Sequence record: NC_047889.1
Length of the DNA stretch: 44,784 nucleotides
Strand: one strand, 5' to 3'
From: Escherichia phage mutPK1A2
Positions 6,341-38,714 of the stretch are shown here, piece by piece (the first letter of the stretch is position 1; every line of letters begins with the position of its first letter). The position numbers were made by a program, and so were the translations under genes. The notes below the pieces were generated by a model, which made no database searches, was not told the origin of the DNA, and saw nothing but the letters and a program-made list of their open reading frames with translations.

Positions 6341-6363
6341 ATTTACCGGACACTATAGGAGAA
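6341..6363 (+). promoter_or_regulatory. Phage RNAP promoter ATTTACCGGACACTATAGGAGAA
   Basis: Matches the recurring consensus ATTTAC(T/C)GGACACTATAGAAG; GACACTATAG core as in SP6-class promoters. Confidence 0.7.
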
Positions 6364-15859: not shown

Positions 15860-16800
15860 TAGATGCTGATATGTTACCCTACATCGTAGGTTATACAATC
15901 AGTGACATGACTTATGTACGAGCCACAACTCGTGTTAAGTCAGGACAAGCCCCATCAATCAAAGATACACCTGAGTGTAAGCAAGCGTGTGACCGTGTGA
16001 ACTCCTTGCTTAACTCTTGGGTGTATGCAGCAGAGTGCGATGCAGCTAAGTTATTCTTGACGAAATCAGAAGCTAACTTCCGTGTTCGCCTAGCATTCAC
16101 CAAGCCTTACAAGGGTCAACGTAAGACCGAGAAGCCTCCCTTCTTCTATGAATTGCGAGAGCATCTCTTAGAGGTTCACGGTGCAATCTTGGCAGATGGA
16201 GAAGAAGCTGATGACCTCATGAGCATCGCACAATGGGCTAGCCACCGCCGCTTCCTGCAAGATACAGGTAACGAGTTCCCTATCGGTAGTCCAGAGCATA
16301 AAGCATTCTCTGATACTTGCATCGTTTCCTTAGATAAGGATTTGATGATTGTTCCCGGTTGGCATCTTCAGCCGGGTCAAGAGAAGAAATGGGTAGAACC
16401 TATGGGTTGGCTTGAGTTACGCCGCAAGGCTAACGGTCAAGTCAAAGACCTAAAAGGTGCTGGCCTTATGTTCCATTATGCACAGATGATTATCGGTGAT
16501 GATATTGATAACTATGCTGGCATACCTGGTCGTGGTGCTAAATATGCCTATGATCTTCTCAAAGGTTGTAAGACAGAGAAAGAATTGTACATGGCAGTGC
16601 TTGGAGCTTACAAAGCTAAGTTCGGTCATGGACAGGTTAAGATTAAGAATTACCGAGGTGGTTATCGGGTTGGCAAAGCCTTTGACCTTATGCTTGAATG
16701 TGGTCGCCTAGCACACATGGCTAGGTTCAAAGGTGATATATGGCGGGCCGATAAGAACCCAATCTTGTGGGGAGATGATGCGGAATGGTTAGCAAATTAA
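15772..16800 (+). CDS. 5'-3' exonuclease (T7 gp6-like, FEN family)
   Basis: Start ATG 15772 with RBS AAGGAG; acidic active-site-like motifs IALIDADMLPY, EADDLMSIA, VSLDKDLMIVPG in the arrangement of FEN-type exonucleases. Confidence 0.7.
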   Translation: MRPNFDFGATVSEDNNLLLWPTEGNRIALIDADMLPYIVGYTISDMTYVRATTRVKSGQAPSIKDTPECKQACDRVNSLLNSWVYAAECDAAKLFLTKSEANFRVRLAFTKPYKGQRKTEKPPFFYELREHLLEVHGAILADGEEADDLMSIAQWASHRRFLQDTGNEFPIGSPEHKAFSDTCIVSLDKDLMIVPGWHLQPGQEKKWVEPMGWLELRRKANGQVKDLKGAGLMFHYAQMIIGDDIDNYAGIPGRGAKYAYDLLKGCKTEKELYMAVLGAYKAKFGHGQVKIKNYRGGYRVGKAFDLMLECGRLAHMARFKGDIWRADKNPILWGDDAEWLAN

Positions 16801-17198
16801 AAGCATCGGAGGTGGCAGCTTATAAGAAGGAATTGCTAGATAAGCAAGGATGGAAATGCCCTCTGTGTGGCGGCAGCCTCAAAGCTGTCACACCTGTAAA
16901 CCGTGTACTTGACCATGACCATGAGACAGGATTCTGCCGTGCTGTTGTATGCCGAGGCTGCAATGGTGCGGAAGGGAAGATTAAGGGTGTTATCTCTGGT
17001 TATGGTAAGGCGGGTAATAACCGTTACTTCCAGCTTCAATGGTTAGAGAGATTGTATGAATACTGGAAGTTACATAGTACGCCTCAGACAGATAAGTTAT
17101 ATCACAAACATCAAACGGAGGCAGAGAAGCGCGAGGCTAAGAACCGTAAGGCACGCCTTGCTTATGCAAGAAAGAAGAAGGAGGTTAAAGTTGGGTAA
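16785..17198 (+). CDS. Endonuclease VII-like Holliday junction resolvase
   Basis: CPLCGG...LDHDHETGFCRAVVCRGCNGAEGKIKG matches the zinc/HNH-like motif pattern I recall for T4 endonuclease VII (CLICQ...HLDHDHE...CNLCNAAEG). Confidence 0.7.
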   Translation: MVSKLKASEVAAYKKELLDKQGWKCPLCGGSLKAVTPVNRVLDHDHETGFCRAVVCRGCNGAEGKIKGVISGYGKAGNNRYFQLQWLERLYEYWKLHSTPQTDKLYHKHQTEAEKREAKNRKARLAYARKKKEVKVG

Positions 17199-20115: not shown

Positions 20116-20244
20116 ATGGAGATGCTTGAGATGATTCTCAAGCCTTCTTCTCCGAAGGTGACTAAGACTCACGAAGAATTAATCGTAGATGAAGTGAAGC
20201 GTTACATTATGGATTGTGTTAGAGCACAACTGGTGGTCCAATGA
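20116..20244 (+). CDS. Hypothetical small protein (start ambiguous: 20074, 20116 or 20131)
   Basis: Track ORF 20062..20244 starts at TTG; several in-frame ATGs with weak to moderate SD. Confidence 0.3.
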   Translation: MEMLEMILKPSSPKVTKTHEELIVDEVKRYIMDCVRAQLVVQ

Positions 20245-20702
20245 TACGTCCAGCTTCATTCCTAGATATTCCTGAGATTATAAACCTTGGGAATAAATAT
20301 GTGGAAGAGGAAGTCAAGGTTGTAGCCCACCACTCAGCCTCATGGAATGCAGAACAAAGCGCACATAACCTTTGTGCATCTCTTAGTAGAGAAGATTTAT
20401 TCCTATGGGTTGCTGTAGATGAAGGGCAGATTGTAGGTTTTCTGTGGGCTGGCTATCACGAGTTAGCCCCTTGGACACCTGTAAGAGTTGCATCTGACAT
20501 TCTCTTTTATATTGTACCAGAGAAGCGAGGGACACTGCTCGGTATGCGCCTCATCAAAGCCTTGAAGCAATGGGCTAACGATAGTGGGTGTTCCGAGGTT
20601 CGCCTGTCTATCGCTTCTGGTATTAATGAAGAACGTGTCGGACGTATGTATAAGCGACTTGGCTTTGAACAGTTTGGCACTGTGTATAACCTGAAGTTCT
20701 AA
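20241..20702 (+). CDS. GNAT-family N-acetyltransferase
   Basis: 153 aa; acetyl-CoA binding motif region VPEKRGTLLGMRLIKALKQWA (R/Q-x-x-G-x-G/A pattern) and overall GNAT size and layout. Confidence 0.65.
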   Translation: MIRPASFLDIPEIINLGNKYVEEEVKVVAHHSASWNAEQSAHNLCASLSREDLFLWVAVDEGQIVGFLWAGYHELAPWTPVRVASDILFYIVPEKRGTLLGMRLIKALKQWANDSGCSEVRLSIASGINEERVGRMYKRLGFEQFGTVYNLKF

Positions 20703-34600: not shown

Positions 34601-34912
34601 ATGGGTATGATGAGTACAACTGCTGTATTTAGTCTAGGTGGAGATTTCTTAGGTGGCCTAGGTGTTCTACCTTCCGAACTCATTCAATCACGCTATGAAG
34701 CAGGTTTCCAAAGTAAGGGTCTGATTGACCAAATACCTCTGGTTGGCGTTGGTGCAGATGCAGTAAATCTGGCTAATTCAATCAAGAGGTATGCAGAAGG
34801 TGACACAGAAGGTGTAGATGTCGCTAAGCGAGCACTTCGTCTTGTGCCACTAACTAATGTAATAGGTGTCCAAAACGCATTGCGTTATGGCTTAGATGAA
34901 CTGGAGGATTGA
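31604..34912 (+). CDS. Large internal virion (core/ejection) protein
   Basis: 1102 aa; RBS GGAGG; position and size consistent with T7 gp15/gp16-class core proteins. Confidence 0.75.
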   Translation: MEQDIKTNWAGYVQSTPEPFSIEAAPVSAPTIRQRNELQEQVLEAKADADILGAVGAAFQNEWLAFGGKRWYDRATADFTPQPDFEIQPEQREALRFKYGTDMMQTITEGVRSEDELNFRIQNADEDLERNKRIAQAGWVGSVATIGAAVLDPVGWVASIPTGGAAKVGLVGRAVRGAIAAGVSNAAIESVLVQGDMTRDLDDIMVALGSGMAMGGVIGAVARGRATKLSEQGDDRAASIVRSADAGDRYVRAVADDSIGAMRVKGEEVLTEGAFDISSKGEDLLKILQREGNAIDMTPRRWAGTMSALGTVVHSSQDASVRGLGARLFESPQGLGMQKASASLMQNTNLNRLKSADMNRFNDGFDLWLKENNINPVAGHTNSHYVQQYNEKVWEAVRIGMDESTPKSIRMAAEGQQAMYREALALRQRSGEAGFEKVKADDKYMPDIFDSMKARRQFGMHDKEDIIELFSRAYQNGSRKVPKEVADEIARAQVNRVVDATLTGRMSFEKAMSGQTKAEYEAIMRKAGFSDEEIEKMVEALDNKETRDNISNRAKMSLGLDVTQEYNGIRMRDFMNTNVEELTDNYMKEAAGGAALARQGFSTYQAALNAIDLVERNARNAAKDTKAHAQFEAESAKIRQSEPDYKKAQEKIEELKKRLKLKEKDEAAGLAIDEEIRQMREGLRLIMGKSIDADPQALSTKMLRRGRDITGVLRLGQMGFAQLGELANFMGEFGIAATTIALGKQFRFTSKALRSGDGFFRDKNLAEVERMVGYIGEDNWLTTKGARPDEFGDVTTVRGMMAHFDQSMNSIRRAQTNLSLFRMAQGSLERMTNRQIALSFIDHLEGKRIIPQKKLEELGLTQEFMTNLQKHYDANSKGSGLLGFDTMPYAMGETLANAIRRKSGIIIQRNFIGDEGIWMNKALGKTFAQLKSFSLVSGEKQFGRGIRHDKIGLAKKTAYGFALGSIVYAAKAYVNSIGREDQDEYLEEKLSPKGLAFGAMGMMSTTAVFSLGGDFLGGLGVLPSELIQSRYEAGFQSKGLIDQIPLVGVGADAVNLANSIKRYAEGDTEGVDVAKRALRLVPLTNVIGVQNALRYGLDELED

Positions 34913-35874
34913 TGAGTTATACTTTCACAGAACATATAGCCAACGGTACGCAAGTTACCTATCCCTTTAGCTTTGCTGGTAGGGATAAAGGTTATCTTCG
35001 TGCCTCAGATGTGATAGTGGAATCTCTTCAAGGTAACACTTGGATTGAGGTTACATCTGGCTGGCAATTAACTGGTACGCATCAAATCACTTTTGATGTA
35101 GCACCCGTTGCAGGTTTGAAGTTCCGTATTCGAAGGGAAGTACAAAAGGAATATCCATACGCTGAGTTTGACCGTGGTGTTACCTTGGATATGAAGTCTT
35201 TAAATGGTTCTTTCATTCATATACTGGAGATTACACAGGAGTTACTTGATGGGTTTTATCCAGAAGGATACTTCATTAAGCAGAATGTAAGCTGGGGCGG
35301 CAATAAGATTACTGACCTAGCTGATGGTGAGAATCCAAAAGATGCAGTAAATAAATCACAGCTAGATGCTATCGACAAGAAGCATACTGATTGGAACTCT
35401 GCACAAGACATAGAGATTGCTGGTATTAAGAGAGGGATGGTGTCTGGTGTATCGCATCGCACTATCCCTTGGTATATGGTCGCCTCCGGTGGAGAGCAAA
35501 TCATTCGACCACCTTACTCATTTGATGATGCTATGGTGTTTATAAACGGTGTATTCCAGCATGAACTAGCAGGTGCAGTATCAGTGGGGTATGATGTTAT
35601 AACCCTGTCCGAGCCATTACAGGCTGGGGATGAAGTTTATGTGCTTATCGGTAGTCGCTTAACCCCACCTACAAGTGCGGATACTATCCTCTTTACACAA
35701 GCAGTGAGTGAAGGTACACAATCTATCGACATTGTAACGGCTTTCCAACGTCTTGATGTATATTTAGATGGCCTGTATCAACCTAATAATGCTTATGAAA
35801 TCGTAGGGTCTACTATCACTTTCAGTGAGCCATTACCTGAGTGTGTCGTAAGTATGAAGTTACAACTAGTGTAA
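34912..35874 (+). CDS. Tail fiber-like adaptor protein (T7 gp17 N-terminal domain homolog)
   Basis: 320 aa from ATG 34912; N-terminal pattern resembles the T7 gp17 tail-attachment domain; short length fits an adaptor that carries separate tailspikes. Confidence 0.65.
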   Translation: MSYTFTEHIANGTQVTYPFSFAGRDKGYLRASDVIVESLQGNTWIEVTSGWQLTGTHQITFDVAPVAGLKFRIRREVQKEYPYAEFDRGVTLDMKSLNGSFIHILEITQELLDGFYPEGYFIKQNVSWGGNKITDLADGENPKDAVNKSQLDAIDKKHTDWNSAQDIEIAGIKRGMVSGVSHRTIPWYMVASGGEQIIRPPYSFDDAMVFINGVFQHELAGAVSVGYDVITLSEPLQAGDEVYVLIGSRLTPPTSADTILFTQAVSEGTQSIDIVTAFQRLDVYLDGLYQPNNAYEIVGSTITFSEPLPECVVSMKLQLV

Positions 35875-35883
35875 GGAGGTGCA

Positions 35884-36078
35884 ATGATTAACTCCGAACT
35901 GGTAGATAGTGGTGTGAAGCTGGCGCCACCTGCATTAGTATCAGGTGGGTACTTCCTCGGTATCAGTTGGGATAATTGGGTGTTAATAGCAACATTCATT
36001 TATACCGTGTTGCAAATTGGAGACTGGTTTTATAATAAGTTCAAGATTTGGAGGGAGAAGCGTGAGCGTACACAATAA
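35884..36078 (+). CDS. Holin (T7 gp17.5-like)
   Basis: 64 aa; RBS AAGGAGGTG; LGISWDNWVLIATFIYTVLQIG resembles T7 holin FGLSLNEWFYVAAIAYTVVQIG; one TM helix and a basic C-terminus. Confidence 0.7.
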   Translation: MINSELVDSGVKLAPPALVSGGYFLGISWDNWVLIATFIYTVLQIGDWFYNKFKIWREKRERTQ

Positions 36079-36361
36079 ACATGCAGCTACAGAGGATGAG
36101 GTTGGCATTCTGCATGGTGCTATTACCAAGATGTTCAACAAGAAAGCACAGGCAATACTGGACACTATAGAAGGGGATCCAGATGCAGCACTGGCTTTAG
36201 TGTCCGGTAAGGACATTGGAGCTATGTGTAAGTGGGTACTGGATAATGGCATCACTGCTACACCTGCTGCACAGCAGGAAGAATCCAAGTTATCTAAGCG
36301 CCTCAAGGCTATCCGAGAGGCATCAAGTGGCAAGATTATTCAGTTTACAAAAGAGGAGTAA
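36062..36361 (+). CDS. Putative terminase small subunit
   Basis: About 100 aa from GTG 36062 behind GGAGGG (track start 36017 is TTG inside the holin gene); upstream of large terminase. Function by position only. Confidence 0.45.
   Translation: MSVHNKHAATEDEVGILHGAITKMFNKKAQAILDTIEGDPDAALALVSGKDIGAMCKWVLDNGITATPAAQQEESKLSKRLKAIREASSGKIIQFTKEE
36154..36176 (+). promoter_or_regulatory. Promoter-like element AATACTGGACACTATAGAAGGGG inside the small terminase gene
   Basis: Core CTGGACACTATAGAAGG conserved; would drive HNH and large terminase. Confidence 0.5.
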
Positions 36362-36364
36362 GAG

Positions 36365-36697
36365 ATGATAAAGCAGATAGAGGAGGAAGGATATACAATA
36401 CTGCCGGAAGGTGTGATTCTTAGTAAGAGAAAACAACCTATGCGGTTTAGTGTTAACCATAAAGGCTATGCACGTATTGGTTTGATGCTAAAAGGCAAGC
36501 AACGCTTCTTCTATCTGCACGTCATTATTGCTACTAAATTCTGTAAGAAGCTACCACACCATACTCAAGTTAATCATAAAGATGGCAATAAATTGAATAA
36601 CGCTAAAGATAACTTAGAGTGGTGTACTGCTAGCGAAACATACTGCACAAATACCATGGAGACATACAAGGAGATATTACTTTGTACTCTAAGATGA
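36365..36697 (+). CDS. HNH endonuclease (homing-endonuclease type)
   Basis: 110 aa; HKGYARIGL...FFYLHVIIATKF...VNHKDGNKLNNAKDNLEWCTASE is the HNH_3-type motif pattern; strong RBS AGGAG. Confidence 0.8.
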   Translation: MIKQIEEEGYTILPEGVILSKRKQPMRFSVNHKGYARIGLMLKGKQRFFYLHVIIATKFCKKLPHHTQVNHKDGNKLNNAKDNLEWCTASETYCTNTMETYKEILLCTLR

Positions 36698-36795
36698 AAG
36701 AACTAAGAGCTGTAGGAATGACCTATAAGCAGATAGCACAGAGCTTAAATGTAAGTGTGGCTACCGTGTTTAAACATTGTAAGGCAGGTGATTGA
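36694..36795 (+). CDS. Small helix-turn-helix ORF (33 aa), possibly the detached DNA-binding tail of the HNH endonuclease
   Basis: MKELRAVGMTYKQIAQSLNVSVATVFKHCK reads as an HTH; its ATG overlaps the HNH stop (ATGA) in the -1 frame and its stop overlaps the large terminase start. Confidence 0.4.
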   Translation: MKELRAVGMTYKQIAQSLNVSVATVFKHCKAGD

Positions 36796-38693
36796 TGGCT
36801 AAGGCAAGAGAATCACAAGCAGAGGCTCTTGCCAGATGGGAGATGCTACAGGAATTACAGCAGACCTTTCCTTACACAGCGGAAGGTTTGCTTCTCTTTG
36901 CAGATACAGTTATTCATAACTTGATTGCAGGCAAACCTCATCTGATTCGTATGCAGGCCGATATTTTAAAGTTTCTATTCTATGGACATAAATATCGCCT
37001 CATCGAAGCGCCCCGTGGCATCGCTAAAACTACACTATCAGCAATCTATACTGTTTTCCGTATCATCCATGAACCCCATAAGCGTATCATGGTAGTGTCC
37101 CAAAACGCCAAGCGAGCAGAGGAAATTGCAGGTTGGGTAGTGAAAATCTTCCGTGGCCTAGACTTCCTTGAGTTTATGCTACCGGACATATACGCTGGCG
37201 ACCGTGCATCAGTCAAAGCATTTGAGATTCACTACACGTTACGCGGCAGCGATAAGTCACCTTCTGTATCCTGTTACTCTATCGAAGCAGGTATGCAGGG
37301 TGCTCGTGCTGATATTATTCTAGCAGATGACGTAGAATCGATGCAGAATGCTCGTACAGCAGCAGGCCGCGCCTTGCTTGAGGAGTTGACCAAGGAGTTT
37401 GAATCTATTAACCAATTTGGTGACATCATCTACCTTGGGACGCCTCAGAACGTAAACTCTATCTACAATAACTTACCTGCTCGTGGTTACTCGGTTCGTA
37501 TCTGGACCGCACGTTATCCTTCAGTAGAGCAAGAGCAATGTTATGGTGACTTCCTTGCACCTATGATTGTGCAGGATATGAAAGACAACCCAGCACTTCG
37601 CTCTGGTTATGGGTTAGACGGTAACAGTGGTGCACCTTGCGCACCTGAAATGTACGATGATGAAGTGCTGATTGAGAAGGAAATCTCTCAGGGTGCGGCT
37701 AAGTTCCAGCTTCAGTTTATGCTTAATACTCGCATGATGGATGCTGACCGCTATCCGCTACGCCTGAATAACCTCATCTTCACTTCATTCGGTACAGAGG
37801 AAGTCCCTGTGATGCCTACATGGAGCAACGACTCTATTAACATCATTGGCGATGCACCGAAGTATGGCAATAAGCATACAGACTTTATGTATCGCCCTGT
37901 GGCCCGACCTTATGAGTGGGGTGCTGTTACCCGCAAGATTATGTATATTGACCCCGCAGGTGGCGGTAAGAACGGGGATGAAACTGGTGTGGCTATCGTC
38001 TTCCTGCACGGCACATTCATTTATGTGTATCAGTGCTTTGGTGTGCCGGGAGGATACCGCGAATCGTCCCTGAATCGCATTGTGCAGGCCGCAAAGCAGG
38101 CAGGTGTTAAAGAGGTATTCATTGAAAAGAACTTTGGTCATGGCGCGTTTGAGGCCGTTATAAAGCCATACTTTGAACGAGAGTGGCCTGTGACTCTGGA
38201 GGAAGATTACGCCACCGGACAGAAAGAGTTGCGTATCATTGAAACACTAGAGCCACTAATGGCGGCCCACAGGCTCATCTTCAACGCAGAGATGGTCAAG
38301 TCTGATTTTGAGTCGGTACAGCACTATCCGCTTGAACTACGCATGTCATACAGCCTTTTCAATCAAATGTCGAACATCACGATTGAGAAGAACAGCCTAC
38401 GACACGATGACCGCTTAGACGCTCTGTATGGCGCTATACGGCAATTAACTTCTCAGATAGACTATGACGAGGTTACACGGATTAATCGCCTCAGAGCGCA
38501 GGAGATGCGCGATTACATCCATGCTATGAACACACCTCACCTCCGTAGGGCAATGCTCTATGGAGATTATGGCACTGAGCGAAGAGTAACCAACACTTCC
38601 GTGGCTATGCAGCAAAGAGTATACGGTCAGAATTACAGGAGTAAATCGGCAAGCAGAAATACACTTTCTGCAAGGATTTCAAGGACTTATTAA
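36795..38693 (+). CDS. Terminase large subunit
   Basis: 633 aa; Walker A-like APRGIAKTT; size and position typical of T7 gp19. Confidence 0.85.
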   Translation: MAKARESQAEALARWEMLQELQQTFPYTAEGLLLFADTVIHNLIAGKPHLIRMQADILKFLFYGHKYRLIEAPRGIAKTTLSAIYTVFRIIHEPHKRIMVVSQNAKRAEEIAGWVVKIFRGLDFLEFMLPDIYAGDRASVKAFEIHYTLRGSDKSPSVSCYSIEAGMQGARADIILADDVESMQNARTAAGRALLEELTKEFESINQFGDIIYLGTPQNVNSIYNNLPARGYSVRIWTARYPSVEQEQCYGDFLAPMIVQDMKDNPALRSGYGLDGNSGAPCAPEMYDDEVLIEKEISQGAAKFQLQFMLNTRMMDADRYPLRLNNLIFTSFGTEEVPVMPTWSNDSINIIGDAPKYGNKHTDFMYRPVARPYEWGAVTRKIMYIDPAGGGKNGDETGVAIVFLHGTFIYVYQCFGVPGGYRESSLNRIVQAAKQAGVKEVFIEKNFGHGAFEAVIKPYFEREWPVTLEEDYATGQKELRIIETLEPLMAAHRLIFNAEMVKSDFESVQHYPLELRMSYSLFNQMSNITIEKNSLRHDDRLDALYGAIRQLTSQIDYDEVTRINRLRAQEMRDYIHAMNTPHLRRAMLYGDYGTERRVTNTSVAMQQRVYGQNYRSKSASRNTLSARISRTY

Positions 38694-38714
38694 TTACCGG
38701 ACACTATAGAAGGA
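38692..38714 (+). promoter_or_regulatory. Phage promoter AATTACCGGACACTATAGAAGGA
   Basis: Consensus core immediately after the terminase stop; followed by an AT-rich TAGGT-repeat leader and hairpin GGGTGTAC-TCCT-GTACACCC. Confidence 0.7.

Follow-up and report, generated by a model that had tools for sequence, protein, structure and literature searches.

In the 44,784-nt stretch of DNA analyzed here (Escherichia phage mutPK1A2, record NC_047889.1; hereafter, the window), positions 36365 to 36795 probably represent a free-standing I-HmuI-like HNH homing endonuclease gene that has either been inactivated recently by a frameshift or been mis-sequenced by one base. The type of element is known, and this family and its insertion site were previously uncharacterized. 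A preliminary description of the window had proposed a single homing endonuclease with an HNH and a helix-turn-helix (HTH) domain, located in the packaging operon and disrupted by a frameshift. This proposal is supported by intact, single-ORF alleles of 143 aa that occupy the same site. The phage belongs to Vectrevirus (K1E/SP6-like), and the gene order at the locus runs from a tail-fiber/adaptor gene (34909 to 35874) and a T7-type holin gene (35884 to 36078) through the small terminase gene and two ORFs to the large terminase gene. The features of the locus are as follows.

36062 to 36361, plus strand: small terminase subunit gene (99 aa), the upstream flank; Pfam DNA_Packaging_2 (58.9 bits) and annotated as such in relatives
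36160 to 36175, plus strand: core of an SP6-type promoter for the phage RNA polymerase (GGACACTATAGAAGGG), located within the small-terminase coding sequence
36365 to 36795, plus strand: homing-endonuclease gene remnant, 431 nt (432 nt in intact alleles), between the small-terminase stop and the large-terminase start
36365 to 36697, plus strand: truncated HNH ORF of 110 aa, consisting of 91 native residues and 19 out-of-frame residues (TYCTNTMETYKEILLCTLR)
36634 to 36795, plus strand: -1 frame with the native C-terminal 52 residues (NILHKYHGD...KAGD), including the HTH, from ORF reading, tblastn, and HTH Pfam matches
36636 to 36638, plus strand: frameshift site at codons 91/92, an A3 run in the window (GCGAAAC) and A4 in intact alleles (GTGAAAAC)
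36786 to 36792, plus strand: AGGTGAT, a Shine-Dalgarno-like motif for the large terminase, read from the sequence and derived from the 3' end of the endonuclease gene
36795 to 38693, plus strand: large terminase subunit gene (632 aa from the ATG at 36795), the downstream flank; Pfam Terminase-T7_RNaseH-like (122 bits) and gene calls in relatives

ORF reading and Pfam searches confirmed the layout first described, in which a 110-aa HNH_3 ORF ends in ATGA and a 33-aa HTH ORF continues in the -1 frame to the large-terminase start. The 110-aa ORF is identical to ATS93348.1/YP_009795419.1, the "putative HNH homing endonuclease" of phage mutPK1A2. It matches HNH_3 with 39.2 bits (cut-off, 24.8), and no other Pfam family was retrieved with it at an E value of ≤1. 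Its 3' end reads ...AGA TGA, with the ATG at 36694 to 36696 overlapping the stop codon. The 33-aa ORF that begins at this ATG (MKELRAVGMTYKQIAQSLNVSVATVFKHCKAGD) matches several HTH families in Pfam (E values of about 1e-5; HTH_7 exceeds its cut-off), and its TGA stop (36793 to 36795) shares a base with the large-terminase ATG in a TGATG motif. The open stretch of the -1 frame starts at 36634, 60 nt ahead of the ATG at 36694, which is the sole in-frame ATG; the HNH ORF and the -1 frame thereby overlap by 64 nt (36634 to 36697).

For database comparison, the two frames were joined at the point given by the HNH consensus (…CTASE|NILHKY…). Along 100% of its length, the joined sequence is 99% identical to one 143-aa protein (P0001; E value of 1e-90); the two-ORF arrangement is therefore not a product of chance. 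P0001 carries PF13392, and its 90% cluster comprises 14 members, with ten distinct full-length 143-aa variants on >20 contigs, many of which, at about 45 kb, are as long as a phage genome. All of the 143-aa variants read ...CTASENILHKYHGD... / …EWCTASENILHKYHGD…. Five metagenome contigs encode P0001 itself, in each case precisely at this small/large terminase junction, where its gene begins 3 nt past the small-terminase stop and its own stop overlaps the large-terminase start. These five contigs are identical to one another in the DNA of this gene and thus effectively count as one independent intact lineage, to which the ten protein variants add support. The comparison with intact HNH-HTH proteins that the preliminary description had called for therefore retrieved single-ORF alleles from the same site in relatives. 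The two ORFs were found as separate genes in no relative, and every intact allele is a single ORF.

Searches with the insert DNA against deposited phages retrieved no close relative, only a 31-nt match at the large-terminase junction and short matches to the HNH core. Protein-guided scans of contigs similarly retrieved, besides a contig designated ZELL14, distant relatives only. The P0001 cluster also contains damaged alleles from metagenome assemblies, namely, P0027 (84 aa, on a 45-kb contig, truncated after ...AKDNL), P0029 (145 aa, with a frameshift within the last ten codons), and, apparently, P0032 (118 aa, N-terminally shortened). These seemingly broken alleles show that decay occurs in this endonuclease family.

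At the DNA level, positions 36365 to 36795 align with L006 to L010 at 96.8% identity with a single 1-nt gap, and the stretch is absent from K1E. The only indel falls in a run of A residues that reads GAAAAC in relatives and GAAAC in the window (AGTGAAAAC versus AGCGAAAC), with one A of the A4 run missing. A tblastn search of P0001 against the window followed frame 2 to 36637 and then frame 1 from 36634; the same search found no further copies of the HNH in the window. The ATGA therefore lies about 57 nt downstream of the actual frame break. The region of 36680 to 36700, which had been suggested for resequencing, is the wrong place to look, as both the alignment and the tblastn frame switch put the missing A at 36636 to 36638. 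The start Met of the 33-aa ORF corresponds to M110 of the intact protein. Judged by this alignment, the 33-aa "HTH ORF" is the stranded C terminus of the endonuclease, and the ATGA overlap is a by-product of the shift, because its Met is an internal residue of the intact protein.

Outside the indel, 11 synonymous and 2 nonsynonymous changes (V117I and G118E) separate the window from L006. Positions 117 and 118 vary among intact alleles, and the "AVG" of the window also occurs in the intact proteins P0023, P0025, and P0028; the stranded C-terminal coding sequence carries no private damage. Given this lack of further decay, the frameshift either arose very recently or reflects a one-base error in the record. 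The A3 allele was not found elsewhere, either by exact-protein look-up or by DNA pattern scans that accepted A3 as well as A4 and covered viral, metagenome, and genome contigs; only the A4 contig was matched.

The position of the lesion bears directly on the catalytic center. The shift affects codon 92, so that the window ORF has Thr in place of the invariant Asn92, one of 13 invariant columns across 19 homologues (26 to 35% identity). By sequence, residues 10 to 96 of P0001 align with I-HmuI (PDB entry 1u3e; E value of 2e-12), with H71 on H75 and N92 on N96. The catalytic residues of I-HmuI are D74, H75, and N96 (PMC12724721). The equivalent of D74, position 70, is an Asn that is invariant in the family rather than an Asp, and the details of metal coordination may not be the same. 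An AlphaFold model of P0001 (pLDDT of 88.8) places the helix of the beta-beta-alpha motif at residues 89 to 98 and the C-terminal HTH helices at residues 105 to 128 and 132 to 140. The only significant Foldseek match of this model in the PDB was again I-HmuI (1u3e), over the whole length (E value of 7.5e-9; 160 aligned columns), with I-PpoI as the runner-up (E value of 0.04). No GVE2- or gp74-type chain was present among the top 50 fold matches or among the hits of a PDB sequence search with P0001 at an E value of ≤1.

The 110-aa window ORF thus contains an HNH_3 domain above threshold and retains H71 but has lost Asn92, whereas intact alleles carry the equivalents of both H75 and N96. Likewise, nuclease and HTH lie in two frames in the window, while P0001 unites them in one polypeptide with an I-HmuI-like fold along its whole length. 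Because Asn92, the active-site helix, and the entire DNA-binding HTH are missing, the 110-aa product is predicted to be inactive. I-HmuI, from Bacillus phage SPO1, shares with the intact protein an N-terminal beta-sheet region, a beta-beta-alpha-metal HNH motif, and a C-terminal HTH, in the same order. It differs in its length of 174 aa and in its coding position within a group I intron of a DNA polymerase gene, whereas the present protein is 143 aa and free-standing between two genes and, in the window, is frameshifted. I-HmuI is an HNH nicking homing endonuclease; members of the family described here may nick or cut both strands.

Comparison with phages that lack the gene defines the insertion site. 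In endonuclease-free K1E, the small-terminase stop overlaps the large-terminase start (GAGGATTGATGG), and the junction reads ...CACTAAGGAGGATTGATGGCTAAGGCAAG.... The large-terminase ATG of endonuclease-free phages is preceded, at the end of the small-terminase gene, by AAGGAGGA. Its counterpart in the window is GAGGAG (36353 to 36358), located at the small-terminase 3' end and followed 6 nt later by the start of the endonuclease gene, for which it would serve as the ribosome-binding site. At the other end, AGGTGAT is the putative ribosome-binding site of the large terminase, and with its 3' end the endonuclease gene also restores the stop/start overlap, GATTGATGG. The 5' flanks differ at three bases between endonuclease-free (ACTAAGGAGGAT) and endonuclease-carrying (ACAAAAGAGGAG) sequences, and these differences may contribute to self-immunity. 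We note that, in the K1E reference (L005, AM084415; 1062 onward), the annotation gives the large terminase as gp40A, the leading portion of a gene that is split; this gene has been read as interrupted by an intron with another homing endonuclease (PMC4246154). Unlike in the K1E annotation, the large-terminase gene of the window is uninterrupted (632 aa).

A promoter-like element had also been reported at 36154, upstream of the endonuclease gene. This element is a genuine member of the phage promoter family, with its core at 36160, although it is not specific to the insert. The window contains ten copies of the promoter (consensus, ATTTACTGGACACTATAGAAGGG), all on the plus strand, compared with 0.35 expected by chance. 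They are located at 6348, 8650, 9380, 12999, 13767, 15049, 23406, 36160, 38699, and 41042; the copy at 38699 lies 6 nt past the large-terminase stop, and the copy at 36160 deviates from the consensus at -17 to -13. We rejected an endonuclease-specific internal promoter, as the motif is part of the small-terminase coding sequence and occurs in endonuclease-free K1E as well. The stretch is present there with 3 downstream mismatches, and the core carries a substitution in a contig with an intact endonuclease; thus, the promoter is not a feature of the insert.

Elsewhere in the window, ten other small ORFs contain no endonuclease-gene domains. The window also encodes an Ocr DNA-mimic homologue (1899 to 2228; Pfam ocr, E value of 9e-31), an endonuclease VII homologue (16785 to 17198), and a GNAT acetyltransferase (20241 to 20702). 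These genes lie in the early and middle regions and are ordinary in this phage group.

The nearest deposited relatives around the locus are Vectrevirus phages (K1E, K1-5, and others) with 90 to 96% identity. Relatives with an uninterrupted small-to-large terminase junction, which the preliminary description had proposed looking for, make up about three quarters (45/60) of the Vectrevirus records listed, out of 76 matched. In 14 of the 60 listed records, the junction is interrupted by about 432 nt containing a different HNH+HTH gene. This second family, of 147 aa, occurs in Mt1B1_P10, AAPEc6, VEc3, KMB47, and several "Vectrevirus" records, and is named "HNH homing endonuclease" in several of them. 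It shares with the window family the insertion site, the 5' flank (ACAAAAGAGGAGT), the architecture, and the approximate size. In contrast, the proteins are only about 36% identical, the DNA is alignable in the HNH core alone, the 3' junctions are unlike (GGCGAAATGG in the 147-aa family versus GGTGATTGATGG in the window family), and the 147-aa genes are intact in those records.

The endonuclease gene of the window shares 96.8% identity with that of the ZELL14 contig, compared with about 91% for the small terminase and the first 500 nt of the large terminase. An identity higher than that of the flanks would be expected if the gene moves between backgrounds. With its sporadic presence at a defined site and its stronger conservation relative to the flanks, the gene is, as far as the sequences tell, both mobile and dispensable. 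I-HmuI-like HNH genes of the lactococcal Skunavirus phages display the same variable presence at fixed intergenic sites and cluster by insertion site (PMC12724721). Marker-exclusion activity has been shown for some of these, and truncated remnants, which are common in phages, account for 56/268 (PMC12724721). The Skunavirus remnants differ in belonging to another phage group and host and in being mostly partial deletions, whereas the lesion in the window is a single-base frameshift without other decay.

A third HNH group was found at the neighboring holin/small-terminase junction of ACG-C91, K1E strain KY435490, ULINTec4, and EC120. Its members are 34 to 38% identical to the window endonuclease and overlap a lengthened holin gene. 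They are located at 773 to 1204 of L001 (KY435490), 765 to 1151 of L002 (ACG-C91), and about 810 to 1200 of L003 (ULINTec4); the ULINTec4 stretch is unannotated, and its gene was found by tblastn. Separately, comparison of window positions 35884 to 36361 with L004 (Mt1B1_P10) revealed a holin that is 97.8% identical and an identical 29-nt promoter-like stretch. The preceding tail-fiber 3' end of Mt1B1_P10 is only about 60% identical to that of the window, and the other endonuclease family occupies its terminase junction. This mosaicism suggests recombination breakpoints around the hot spot or the replacement of one endonuclease gene by another.

Based on analogy with I-HmuI and other phage endonuclease genes, a homing cycle can be proposed for this locus. 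The intact gene encodes one 143-aa protein, which combines an N-terminal beta-sheet region for DNA contact, a beta-beta-alpha-metal HNH motif in which His71 would act as the general base and Asn92 as a metal ligand, and a C-terminal HTH. During mixed infection, this enzyme would recognize, in a related phage, the small/large terminase junction that lacks the gene and would nick or cut it, and recombinational repair from the endonuclease-carrying genome would then copy the gene into the cut genome. The gene appears to have been inserted between the ribosome-binding site and the start codon of the large terminase; it would thereby take over that site and supply the large terminase with AGGTGAT and a TGATG stop/start overlap as replacements. 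In the window, the missing A at 36636 to 36638 would shift translation at codon 92, add 19 wrong residues, and lead to the stop at 36697.

Several other readings of the locus were weighed. The phage may have an intact 143-aa gene from whose record one A of the A4 run was dropped during sequencing or assembly. In keeping with such an artifact, the sole lesion is a 1-nt difference in homopolymer length, the downstream frame is otherwise undamaged, and the A3 allele is unique to this record in the collections searched. PK1A2 is a K1E-like member of the SP6 subgroup. The publication on it goes no further than a "preliminary sequence analysis," after which MG004687 was deposited, and contains nothing on this gene or on the sequencing method (PMC5715158). 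However, a run of four bases is short for a consensus-level homopolymer error, and this phage, a long-propagated laboratory host-range mutant, is under no selection to retain a selfish endonuclease. P0027 and P0029 are also broken within the same protein cluster. We therefore regard an artifact as a real possibility, though not a likely one. A genuine two-frame gene, read through by programmed -1 ribosomal frameshifting or transcriptional slippage to yield a full-length HNH-HTH protein, is far less credible. The recoded product would join the peptide NILHKYHGDIQGDITLYSK to ...EWCTASE, and the 64-nt overlap between the frames would accommodate a shift. A modest hairpin at 36657 to 36691 (GGAGACAUACAAGGAGAUAUUACUUUGUACUCU) also lies downstream of the site, just ahead of the ATGA (z = -2.0 for the 101-nt fold; 6/200 shuffles fold as well). 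This hairpin, which is weak, begins 17 nt from the A run (a stimulatory structure is expected 5 to 9 nt downstream of a shift site), and its sequence is identical in intact alleles. No X XXY YYZ heptamer occurs anywhere in the ORF, and the A3 at the site is too short for polymerase slippage. All ten natural variants are one ORF with A4, so the two-frame layout is not conserved, and a shift anywhere but at codon 91/92 would omit the invariant Asn92. The suggestion that the endonuclease might be expressed by frameshifting was thus not borne out: the slippery heptamer is missing, intact alleles need no shift, and the break is in the codon of the catalytic Asn.

The location between the two terminase genes had also raised the idea that the HNH protein assists the terminase in packaging, like HK97 gp74 or the GVE2-type HNH, and is not selfish. 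Position alone favors this reading. HK97 gp74 and the GVE2 HNHE have an HNH motif and a gene beside the terminase genes in common with the window protein, but they belong to another HNH subfamily and are needed for cos cleavage. They are also present in every member of their groups, consistent with the universal conservation of true packaging HNH proteins within their phage groups (PMC12724721). The window protein, on the other hand, matches HNH_3 only in Pfam and has the homing enzyme I-HmuI as its sequence and fold match, and there is no gene at the junction in about three quarters of the Vectrevirus records (60 listed of 76). T7/SP6-type large terminases moreover have their own nuclease domain (Pfam Terminase-T7_RNaseH-like), and the phage was propagated with the gene broken (PMC5715158). 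With the wrong subfamily, absence from most relatives, and a broken copy here, we consider a packaging role extremely unlikely. Equally improbable is a pair of independent functional genes, in which a stand-alone HNH nuclease is followed by a small HTH regulator through termination-reinitiation at the ATGA. The ATGA (36694 to 36697) and TGATG overlaps would permit coupled translation, and the HTH sequence is undamaged. Nevertheless, the two are separate in no relative, the 110-aa ORF lacks the invariant Asn92 and is out of frame for its last 19 residues, and the initiating Met of the putative regulator is M110 inside the intact protein. A related scenario, which we judge very improbable, is that the phage tolerates the split or even profits from it: termination-reinitiation at the ATGA would release a free 33-aa HTH peptide that might still bind the homing site at the terminase junction and thereby either adjust large-terminase translation or protect the genome against related endonucleases. 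If true, this would represent a step in the domestication of a dead homing endonuclease. An endonuclease gene frameshifted recently or mis-sequenced by one base is the reading that we prefer.

For annotation, YP_009795419.1/ATS93348.1 (110 aa) needs either a recheck or a label that marks it as a frameshifted pseudogene, and the 33-aa HTH ORF should not be named a regulator. The significance of the finding beyond annotation is small. Within the SP6/K1E-like phages, the locus illustrates, cleanly and on a small scale, the life cycle of a homing endonuclease, and the holin/small terminase/large terminase region emerges as a hot spot whose two junctions accommodate at least three HNH families. Among therapeutic K1 phages, a candidate marker-exclusion factor would be the intact 143-aa enzyme or its 147-aa counterpart from the same site.
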